From Escherichia phage BA14, in sequence record NC_011040.1: a stretch of 39,816 nt of DNA; one strand, 5' to 3'. Position numbers and translations under genes: made by a program. The first letter of the stretch is position 1; each line of letters opens with the position of its first letter. Shown one piece after another: positions 10,901 to 14,536 of this stretch. Under the pieces are notes generated by a model, which had not been told where the DNA came from, did not search any database, and saw only the letters and a program-made list of their open reading frames with translations.

Positions 10901-12710
<1,810 letters not shown>

Positions 12711-12790
12711 GGCCAACGATTGGTTGTTGACAACTCAATGTAATTGCCCTTGGGACGCGCCCTGTGTGTGTCCTGAGAGACAGCCTGAAT

Positions 12791-12813
12791 AAATAGAACT
12801 CACTAATGGGACA
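12791..12813 (+). promoter_or_regulatory. Phage RNAP promoter aAATAGAACTCACTAATGGGACA (phi4.3-like)
   Basis: Core ACTCACTAATGGGA; 40 nt upstream of gene 4.3. Confidence 0.65.
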
Positions 12814-12856
12814 GACATTCTGTTCCCACTTATCAATCCACTTAAGGAGAAGCACA

Positions 12857-13069
12857 ATGTTTAAATTCATCAACACTCTCGGTAAACTGGTAGTTAAAAT
12901 GTACTTCCGTGAAGCTAAACGTCTGAACGACAAGGCACGTAAGGATGCAGAACAGGCTCAACGCTTGGCGAAACAGGCACGTCTGCTGTCTGAAGATGCA
13001 AGTGCTGGCGTTACGTCTGCTGCTAAGATTGCAGCGAAAGCAACCGACCTGAACAAGTTCTTCCTGTGA
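12857..13069 (+). CDS. 4.3: gp4.3-like small protein
   Basis: 70 aa from ATG 12857 with RBS AAGGAGA; MFKFINTLGKLVV...EAKRLND resembles T7 gp4.3 as I recall it. Confidence 0.75.
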   Translation: MFKFINTLGKLVVKMYFREAKRLNDKARKDAEQAQRLAKQARLLSEDASAGVTSAAKIAAKATDLNKFFL

Positions 13070-13248
13070 TGGTTACGATAACCCTTGTGCTCACTCTGAT
13101 AACTGTGAGCGGACAAACAATAAGTCAAGTCCCTATCACGGCACCGAAGGCTGAGGCATACGAGATATGCGAACAGCAAGGTCGCTCATGGTCTAAGGAC
13201 TTGATGAAGAACGGCAGGGTTTTCACTGCCAACTACAACTGCATCTAA
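13069..13248 (+). CDS. Hypothetical small protein with hydrophobic N-terminus
   Basis: 59 aa; ATG overlaps the 4.3 stop (TGATG); N-terminal VTITLVLTLITVSG. Confidence 0.45.
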   Translation: MVTITLVLTLITVSGQTISQVPITAPKAEAYEICEQQGRSWSKDLMKNGRVFTANYNCI

Positions 13249-13263
13249 TAGGAGTAACATAAC

Positions 13264-13566
13264 ATGGCTATTAAATTCCCCGGCAATACCATCCGTCTGT
13301 CCGATACCGTTGACCAGTATGCTCGTCGAGTGCACATCAACGTCCGTAATGGCAAGGTCACTCTGGTCTACCGTTGGAAAGACCATAAGTCCACCAAGGC
13401 GCACACACAGCGTGTAACTCTGGATGATACACAGGCAGGTCGTCTGCTGGCTTCCGTTGCTGTAGCCGCTACTGTGGCTGTAGGTGAAGACAAGGTTCGT
13501 GGTGTCCTGCTCGGTAAGACCGTCGAAGCTGAGGGCAACATGCTGGCTGAGAAGTCTGAAATCTAA
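13264..13566 (+). CDS. Hypothetical protein (gene 4.5 position)
   Basis: 100-aa ORF with upstream AGGAG; position between 4.3 and the R4.7/phi4.7 elements. Confidence 0.55.
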   Translation: MAIKFPGNTIRLSDTVDQYARRVHINVRNGKVTLVYRWKDHKSTKAHTQRVTLDDTQAGRLLASVAVAATVAVGEDKVRGVLLGKTVEAEGNMLAEKSEI

Positions 13567-13570
13567 AAGA

Positions 13571-13611
13571 GTTAAACTAAAGGTCATCTCCGGGTGGCCT
13601 TCGTGATTAAC
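13571..13611 (+). promoter_or_regulatory. RNase III-type processing hairpin (R4.7 position)
   Basis: GTTAAACTAAAGGTCATctccgGGTGGCCTTCGTGATTAAC, third copy of the 6301/6821 element, immediately upstream of a phage promoter. Confidence 0.6.
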
Positions 13612-13624
13612 TTTTGTATGAAAA

Positions 13625-13647
13625 CTATTCAACTCACTAATGGGAGA
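13625..13647 (+). promoter_or_regulatory. Phage RNAP promoter (ctattcAACTCACTAATGGGAGA)
   Basis: Core ACTCACTAATGGGAGA with degenerate upstream half; 9 nt upstream of the next ATG. Confidence 0.6.
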
Positions 13648-13655
13648 ACAACACT

Positions 13656-14072
13656 ATGCGTAATCGTAATGTAATCGAAGCTGAAATCTCTAAGCTGCAA
13701 ACTGAACTGGCTGATGTCAAAGAGTATGAATGTGCTCGTGACTCTGCGGTACACATCCTGAAGAACTTAGGGTGGACTCGCTCCCGTGGTCAATGGGTGA
13801 AACCTAAAGCCACTGGCGGTAGCGTTGGCTGTCAGACCTTTGATGCAAACAAGATGACTCACCTTAAGGCTGGGGACTTCTGCACCTTCACCAGCAACGC
13901 AGACATCTGGTATGTCCGTAAGGTCGAAGGGACAGACATTTGGTGCTCCCGTGTGACACGCATTGATGCAATGGGTACAGTCGCTGGGATTCAGTATCAC
14001 AAGATGAACCACAAGAACCTGCGAGTGATTGACCCGAAGAACTTCATGGGCTATCGCCGTTCAACATTTTAA
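13656..14072 (+). CDS. Hypothetical protein (gene 4.7 position)
   Basis: 138-aa ORF directly after the promoter; size and position as T7 gp4.7. Confidence 0.65.
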   Translation: MRNRNVIEAEISKLQTELADVKEYECARDSAVHILKNLGWTRSRGQWVKPKATGGSVGCQTFDANKMTHLKAGDFCTFTSNADIWYVRKVEGTDIWCSRVTRIDAMGTVAGIQYHKMNHKNLRVIDPKNFMGYRRSTF

Positions 14073-14101: not shown

Positions 14102-14536
14102 GTGCATAAGTCTACTAAGATTCAGACGGTTGAATCCTTACTGTCTCGCACGGTTAGTGTTGAGGGCTGCTTGGAGTGGACAGGTTCCACAAGAGGTGGT
14201 TATGGTAGGGTGACAACTCAAGGAAAAGGATGGACAGTCATACGTTTAATTTGGACTCTTCAACACGGAGAGATACCAGAAGGTAACGTTGTACGCCACA
14301 CCTGCGACAACCCTAAGTGCTGCAACCCTGAACACCTTGTTGTAGGTACTCAAGGCGACAACATGCAGGATAGGTTTAACAGAGGGCGCTACTCGCTATT
14401 TCCACTGCCAAGTATGGTGGAAGCTCTTATCTCGCGTGGAATATCCCAAGCAAGTATTGCTGGATTCTTCTGCGTTAACCAAGGCCACATCTCTCGCATC
14501 CATCGTGGGGAGTATCGAGGTGCAAAGTGCTGTTAA
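14102..14536 (+). CDS. HNH homing endonuclease
   Basis: 144 aa from GTG 14102 (RBS GAAGGAGA 7 nt upstream); HNH signature RHTCDNPKCCNPEHLVVGTQGDNMQD. Confidence 0.85.
   Translation: MHKSTKIQTVESLLSRTVSVEGCLEWTGSTRGGYGRVTTQGKGWTVIRLIWTLQHGEIPEGNVVRHTCDNPKCCNPEHLVVGTQGDNMQDRFNRGRYSLFPLPSMVEALISRGISQASIAGFFCVNQGHISRIHRGEYRGAKCC

Follow-up and report, generated by a model that had tools for sequence, protein, structure and literature searches.

What are the two small open reading frames (ORFs) that, in the genome of Escherichia phage BA14 (NC_011040.1), lie where phage T7 has its gene 4.5? The window, that is, the whole stretch of 39,816 nucleotides (nt) analyzed here, belongs to a Berlinvirus (Autographiviridae, Studiervirinae), a relative of T7. 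Between its gene 4.3 orthologue and an R4.7-type hairpin it carries ORFs of 59 and 100 amino acids (aa), both on the plus strand and both at the positions given by an earlier, sequence-only reading (Table 1). That reading saw two unassigned genes filling the interval of T7 gene 4.5 and recognized neither of them. This holds for one of the two: the 59-aa ORF is an additional gene, absent from T7, while the 100-aa ORF is gene 4.5 itself. We hold this structural and annotation account of both ORFs with good confidence, a confidence that does not extend to the function of the 59-aa protein.

Homology identifies the 100-aa ORF as an orthologue of gp4.5. It matches the Pfam family PF17574 (TA_inhibitor, 'Inhibitor of toxin/antitoxin system (Gp4.5)') with 101.1 bits (cut-off 27; E = 3.6e-29; residues 8–75 on profile positions 6–73 of 89) and PHROG 2254 with an E-value of 2.6e-44, and a BLASTP comparison with T7 gp4.5 gives 45 identities over 67 positions (67%; residues 9–75; E = 4e-32). 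The two proteins also share their slot: in both phages, gene 4.5 follows gene 4.3 and precedes the R4.7 hairpin, phi4.7 and gene 4.7, with a single extra gene intercalated in the window. Records of related genomes already name the counterpart of the 100-aa ORF gp4.5. It is therefore hardly credible that both ORFs are unrecognizable, novel proteins occupying the place of T7 gene 4.5; the 59-aa ORF is indeed without an assigned function, but gene 4.5 has not been replaced and has only gained one new upstream neighbor. In annotations, the 100-aa gene should appear as gene 4.5 (Lon inhibitor family), and with that most of the apparent novelty of the locus is gone.

T7 gp4.5 is reported to inhibit the Lon protease and thereby to neutralize a Lon-dependent toxin–antitoxin defense (Sberro et al. 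2013, as summarized in PMC7438911). In a knockout screen (PhageMaP), gp4.5 was conditionally essential on CcdAB-bearing strains, with a possible anti-RADAR role (PMC11482910). By homology, the window gp4.5 would be expected to bind and inhibit host Lon, which would keep labile antitoxins undegraded and blunt toxin–antitoxin-based abortive infection. Two points tell against carrying the T7 function over unchanged. The window protein is only 50% identical to T7 gp4.5 overall (70% to Przondovirus and 82–91% to other Berlinvirus proteins), being 11 aa longer and divergent in its C-terminal tail, with a variable C-terminal third, and gp4.5 may have further roles according to the same screen (PMC11482910).

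The gap between genes 4.3 and 4.5 of T7 is only 19 nt, so the 59-aa ORF is a true addition compared with T7. Is it a gene at all? A length of 59 codons is unremarkable by chance in the window, where many spurious ORFs are alike in size. A non-functional or untranslated frame, for example leftover or filler sequence separating gene 4.3 from gene 4.5, would fit with the absence of a Shine–Dalgarno sequence upstream of the window copy, with the lack of annotation in several relatives (including JSS1, ErnstBeyeler and pO103), and with the many Berlinviruses that manage without the small gene. Selection and conservation make such a frame very improbable and establish the ORF as a genuine protein-coding gene. 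Twelve Berlinvirus copies encode an identical protein (100%) with 2–4 synonymous differences, and comparison with pO103 gives 15.5 synonymous and 10.5 non-synonymous differences, a ratio of non-synonymous to synonymous rates (dN/dS) of 0.15 that is comparable to that of gp4.5 (0.18–0.39). Between genera, synonymous sites are saturated (proportion of synonymous differences, pS, 0.7–0.9), while the proteins are still 50–58% identical. The N-terminal part is best conserved: relative to Kayfunavirus, codons 1–26 have a pS of 0.89 and a proportion of non-synonymous differences (pN) of 0.07, against a pN of 0.50 in the rest, and this combination of high pS and low pN places the conservation at the protein level rather than the DNA level. 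Neither frameshifts nor stop codons occur in 18 copies from four Studiervirinae lineages or in two Slopekvirinae-like copies, and homologues outside the window can carry a Shine–Dalgarno sequence of their own. Purifying selection, occurrence in three Studiervirinae genera and in another subfamily, and a fold predicted with confidence together argue that the ORF is translated.

The ORF matches PHROG 6794 over its full length (residues 2–60 on profile positions 1–60 of 62; Table 1). This is a catalogued, uncharacterized family of small proteins, of which the 59-aa ORF is a genuine member. Proteins of the family (59–62 aa; e.g. HOT38_gp33 of vB_EcoP_S523 and ALJ98077 of Klebsiella phage vB_Kp1) share its length, invariant residues and predicted fold; it is 100% identical to the proteins of S523, PhiV-1, FE44 and 285P and 48–68% identical to other members, and nothing sets it apart. 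Fourteen residues are invariant across the family alignment, and T3, L6, L8, T9, L10, G15, I18, V21, C34, G38, W41, A54 and C58 are all present in the window protein. Pfam gave no match to the 59-aa ORF, and a search of the literature on PHROG 6794, Berlinvirus gp4.5 and 285P/BA14 found nothing about the gene.

How would this protein be made? The ATG of the 59-aa ORF shares its A with the TGA stop of gene 4.3 (TGATG), and in Berlinviruses the two genes overlap as TGATG or TAATG. Given this overlap and the missing Shine–Dalgarno sequence, the protein is most likely translated by termination–reinitiation coupled to gp4.3. A GTG at position 13066 was considered as the start and dropped for the ATG at 13069, since every homologue starts with M-[VIHS]-T. 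In pO103 (locus L009, 1140–1165), the junction of gene 4.3 and the small gene contains a 12-nt tandem duplication (CTGTAAGGGTTA followed by CTGTGATGATTA), which separates the gene 4.3 stop from the small-gene ATG and stands in place of the window's TGATG overlap.

Intact homologues of the 59-aa gene were found by tblastn in 75 phage records. Approximately 19 Berlinviruses carry it at 85–100% identity, and the other carriers are Klebsiella Przondoviruses (in the same slot), E. coli K1 Kayfunaviruses and one Citrobacter phage. The gene is present in a minority of phages, namely in 32 of 536 records that match the Przondovirus region and in 17 of 193 that match the Kayfunavirus region, and many Berlinviruses are without it. 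Kayfunavirus carriers have the small gene before gene 4, after gp3.7. This gp4.3-like protein (L016, 2217–2432; in K1F, L024, 168–383) aligns end to end with DUF5471 at 18 bits, below the threshold of 25, and the gp4.3-type gene appears to sit at another genome position in this genus. A divergent subclade of homologues (P0010–P0012; 63–68% identical) resides in the early-gene array of Slopekvirinae-like phages, with its own Shine–Dalgarno sequences. Its loci (L020, 3001–3180; L021, 3001–3189) are on Logan contigs related to Escherichia phage vB_EcoP_PAS7 (Slopekvirinae) and adjoin DUF7421 and Phage_pRha genes, not gp4.3 or gp4.5.

The family is small. A word-indexed search of 5.8 billion proteins returned 3 matches with the single sequence and 11 with a profile, all of 59–62 aa, and a scan of IMG/VR gave 9 loci, several of which are isolates already in the GenBank phage collection (FE44, 285P, S523, BSP161). 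An exhaustive phmmer search of 1.84 billion representative proteins found three family clusters and one 437-aa metagenomic repeat protein, P0005, with six or seven tandem repeats of ~62 aa that weakly resemble residues 17–56 of the 59-aa protein. P0005 is probably not a homologue: it scores ~25 bits per repeat over a short P-x-T...C-x-G-x-S-W motif and has unrelated Pfam matches, and its E-value is inflated because the repeat is present in six copies. The match is probably spurious.

How did the gene come to lie between genes 4.3 and 4.5? In an alignment with ETEP21B, a Berlinvirus without it, and with T7, the 59-aa gene is a precise one-gene indel. In empty genomes, the stop of gene 4.3 abuts the AGGAG of gene 4.5, a motif that is kept whether or not a genome has the 59-aa gene and is annotated as a ribosome-binding site in ETEP21B. 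The 1.3-kb region around both ORFs is 88–94% identical to many Berlinvirus genomes (including S523, JSS1, PhiV-1, 285P and PYPS50), with no near-identical record among the phage collection searched. When Berlinvirus carriers (L001, L003, L011–L013) are compared with window positions 12857–13566, the block of gene 4.3 plus the small gene is 95–99% identical (the small gene 98–99%), against 78–89% for gp4.5 and 65–91% for gp4.7; gp4.3 of a non-carrier is 89% identical. Such values indicate a mosaic history in which gene 4.3 and the small gene moved together, and imply recombination breakpoints at gene boundaries.

Does this joint movement mean that the 59-aa protein works with gp4.3, as its partner or modulator, in a complex encoded by a two-gene module? 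The small gene lies directly 3′ of a DUF5471-type gene in four of four Studiervirinae lineages examined (Kayfunavirus gp3.7 included), and both the stop–start overlap and the shared block in Berlinviruses, at 98–99% identity against 87–89% for gp4.5, fit with such a module. However, most T7-like phages have gp4.3 without the small gene, the Slopekvirinae-like homologues adjoin no DUF5471 gene, and the Kayfunavirus DUF5471 match stays under the Pfam threshold. The adjacency in three lineages may, moreover, stem from a single ancestral insertion, and we consider a partnership with gp4.3 quite unlikely.

Two other lineages have direct repeats around the small gene. In Przondovirus Kp1 (vB_Kp1; L005, 1146–1370), the gene sits between two exact copies of TAAGGAGTTCTTCTAA, of which the empty KpV763 (L023) has one; this sequence comprises the end of gene 4.3 plus the Shine–Dalgarno and start region of gene 4.5. 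In Kayfunavirus F (vB_EcoP_F; L016, 2484–2697), it sits between two copies of TTAAGGAGTGACCAATG, and the empty K1F (L024) and ZCEC02 (L025) have one each. At two different loci, 16–17 bp of the recipient's stop/Shine–Dalgarno/ATG junction are duplicated, a target-duplication-like signature that results in a ribosome-binding site for both the new and the downstream gene. The flanking repeats could also mediate precise loss of the small gene. No flanking direct repeats were found in the window, which has the Berlinvirus version. These repeat-flanked filled and empty sites offer a small, well-defined example of gene insertion into a packed phage operon with downstream expression intact.

The pattern resembles that of phage 'morons' and single-gene cassettes in its precise presence or absence at gene boundaries, with different slots per genus, and in the short direct repeats that flank the small gene in two lineages. 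It differs in that the 59-aa gene lacks a promoter and terminator of its own and, in the window, relies on translation of the upstream gene, and in that the repeats duplicate the recipient's own junction rather than a portable regulatory cassette. Modular shuffling mediated by promoter early stem-loops (PeSLs) has been described for T4-type phages.

Predictions of the protein's structure bear on where it acts. AlphaFold2 gave a mean predicted local distance difference test (pLDDT) score of 70 with the single 59-aa sequence. With an 11-sequence alignment, the pLDDT rose to 91.7 (predicted template modeling score, pTM, 0.72) for a compact beta-beta-alpha-beta domain with strands at residues 2–12, 15–25 and 51–58 and a helix at 27–46. 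Residues 2–25 are modeled as a core beta-hairpin (pLDDT 92–94), and independent BFVD models of two homologues superpose with template modeling (TM) scores of 0.92–0.93. The BFVD matches are uncharacterized phage proteins only. Fold comparison gives no lead to a function either: of the fold to which the model is similar, only half is present, at 2–8% sequence identity, and the proteins hit have mutually unrelated functions. This similarity is generic and no evidence of function. Searches of PDB sequences with the 59-aa and 100-aa proteins returned nothing meaningful, the matches to 'Cake' designer repeats being artefacts.

The sequence-only reading had also pointed out a hydrophobic N-terminus in the 59-aa protein, and this feature is borne out: the mean Kyte–Doolittle hydropathy of residues 2–13 is 2.5, and 1.9–2.5 across all members. 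Residues 1–15 could accordingly be a Sec signal peptide or a membrane anchor, leaving a 44-aa periplasmic remainder with a C34–C58 disulfide that would act on the envelope, for instance in superinfection exclusion, receptor masking or lysis timing. The hydrophobic stretch has the length of an h-region (~7–15 residues), the small residues V-S-G stand before Q16 at a putative cleavage site, both cysteines are invariant, and the weak repeat-protein match has a similar Cys...Cys spacing. Yet charged residues (K, R, D, E) are absent from positions 1–13 in 11 of 11 members, which leaves no positive n-region, and the segment alternates Thr with aliphatic residues, with a beta-like hydrophobic periodicity in most of the 11. 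It is also the best conserved part of the protein, contrary to typical signal peptides, and one homologue reads S-S-G/P at the putative cleavage site, with Pro at +1. The hydrophobic run falls short of a standard transmembrane helix, and in the AlphaFold model the core hairpin is not separate from the domain. Because of the missing N-terminal charge, the beta periodicity, the top conservation and the Pro at +1, we favor a core beta strand or hairpin over a signal peptide or transmembrane helix, and regard export or membrane anchoring as unlikely.

What might such a protein do? The sequence-only reading noted that small middle-region proteins of T7-like phages often target host systems, an idea documented for gp4.5 (Lon inhibition; PMC7438911, PMC11482910) and plausible for the 59-aa protein. 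Tentatively, and with somewhat less than an even chance of being right, we read it from the model as a cytoplasmic binder of a host target. Among T7-like phages the 59-aa gene comes and goes precisely, as a unit of one gene, and its product would be a compact cytoplasmic beta-beta-alpha-beta domain with the hydrophobic, Thr-rich N-terminus as its central hairpin. It would act without catalysis by binding a host protein, possibly as a dimer formed via the exposed Thr/Val/Ile face of the sheet, and may be a dispensable, host-specific takeover or counter-defense factor. Several points weigh against this picture. The coupling to gp4.3 is inferred from the sequence, and an exported peptide with a disulfide bond would likewise account for the 13-residue hydrophobic N-terminus, the V-S-G/Q site and the invariant pair of cysteines; export is not something that AlphaFold models.

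A further-reaching version, possible but on the unlikely side, takes the protein for a hitherto unrecognized host-takeover or counter-defense effector, a minimal beta-beta-alpha-beta binder with a functional cysteine pair, that passes from one Autographiviridae lineage to another as a single-gene cassette able to express itself. The 16–17 bp duplications would then suggest a defined route of insertion by which both genes stay expressed, and a candidate is template switching of the copy-choice type at TAAGGAG/ATG microhomologies in co-infected cells.

T7 itself encodes several small, non-essential class I/II takeover proteins, such as the RNA polymerase inhibitor Gp2, gp5.7, gp0.4 and gp5.9. 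The 59-aa protein is like these in its non-enzymatic size of ~60 aa, its early/middle gene location, its presumed dispensability and variable presence, and its predicted compact, globular form. It has no sequence or specific fold match to any of the four, and it is not acidic or DNA-mimic-like (5 K+R versus 4 D+E). Patchy distribution, strong purifying selection and a confident fold make the gene a clean and cheap candidate for host-range and anti-defense screens, and the natural genomes with and without it, homologous across the region and 88–94% identical there, suit such a comparison.

Both genes appear to belong to one transcription unit (Table 1). A search of the window with the phage RNA-polymerase promoter pattern (G/A)ACTCACTA(A/T)TGGGA gave 11 matches with at most two mismatches, all on the plus strand, against 0.1 expected. 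Two exact copies bracket both ORFs, at places where promoters are annotated in ETEP21B and T7. The upstream copy, equivalent to phi4.3, would drive genes 4.3, 59-aa and 4.5, and the interval may be read as one class II (middle) Berlinvirus unit consisting of this promoter, the three genes and a closing R4.7-type hairpin, which is placed like T7 R4.7, between gene 4.5 and phi4.7. The first gene of the unit is a clear gene 4.3 (74.3 bits to PF17565, above the gathering score of 25; 54% identity to T7 gp4.3, E = 1e-23). No relevant sigma-70 promoters or terminators were found in the region.

Table 1. Features of the gene 4.3–4.7 region in the window (positions are those of the window)
Feature	Position	Strand	Basis
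Phage RNA-polymerase promoter core, phi4.3 equivalent	12797..12811	+	Exact match to AACTCACTAATGGGA
Gene 4.3 orthologue, 70 aa, DUF5471	12857..13069	+	Pfam PF17565, E 9.5e-21; T7 gp4.3 match
59-aa accessory gene, provisionally 'gene 4.4'	13069..13248	+	PHROG 6794, E 2e-25; ATG 13069, TAA 13248
Shine–Dalgarno AGGAG of gene 4.5	13250..13254	+	Read from sequence, 9 nt upstream of ATG
Gene 4.5 orthologue, 100 aa	13264..13566	+	Pfam PF17574, PHROG 2254; ATG 13264, TAA 13566
R4.7-type RNA hairpin, candidate RNase III processing site	13567..13615	+	Minimum free energy -19.5 kcal/mol, z = -4.0 vs shuffles
Phage promoter core, phi4.7 equivalent	13631..13645	+	Exact consensus match; annotated there in ETEP21B, T7
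Gene 4.7 orthologue, 138 aa, downstream neighbor	13656..14072	+	PHROG 4023, E 6.9e-56; annotated gp4.7 in JSS1, PhiV-1

Two minus-strand ORFs that overlap the region (12958–13179 and 13186–13632) were dismissed, because all 11 promoter matches are on the plus strand and T7-like phages are known to transcribe a single strand only. Upstream of gene 4.3, a 120-aa ORF in another frame (12430–12792, plus strand) overlaps the 3′ end of the primase/helicase gene and corresponds to PhiV-1 gp4.2, and the least conserved segment of the region, with 46–66% identity to relatives, spans positions 12711–12856. A 144-aa HNH endonuclease gene (14102–14536, plus strand; Pfam HNH_3, E = 2.4e-13; PHROG 1872) follows gene 4.7, ahead of the DNA polymerase gene (gene 5), whose start it overlaps. 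In JSS1, PhiV-1 and ETEP21B, gene 5 comes immediately behind gene 4.7, and the HNH gene looks like a homing-endonuclease insertion specific to the window genome.

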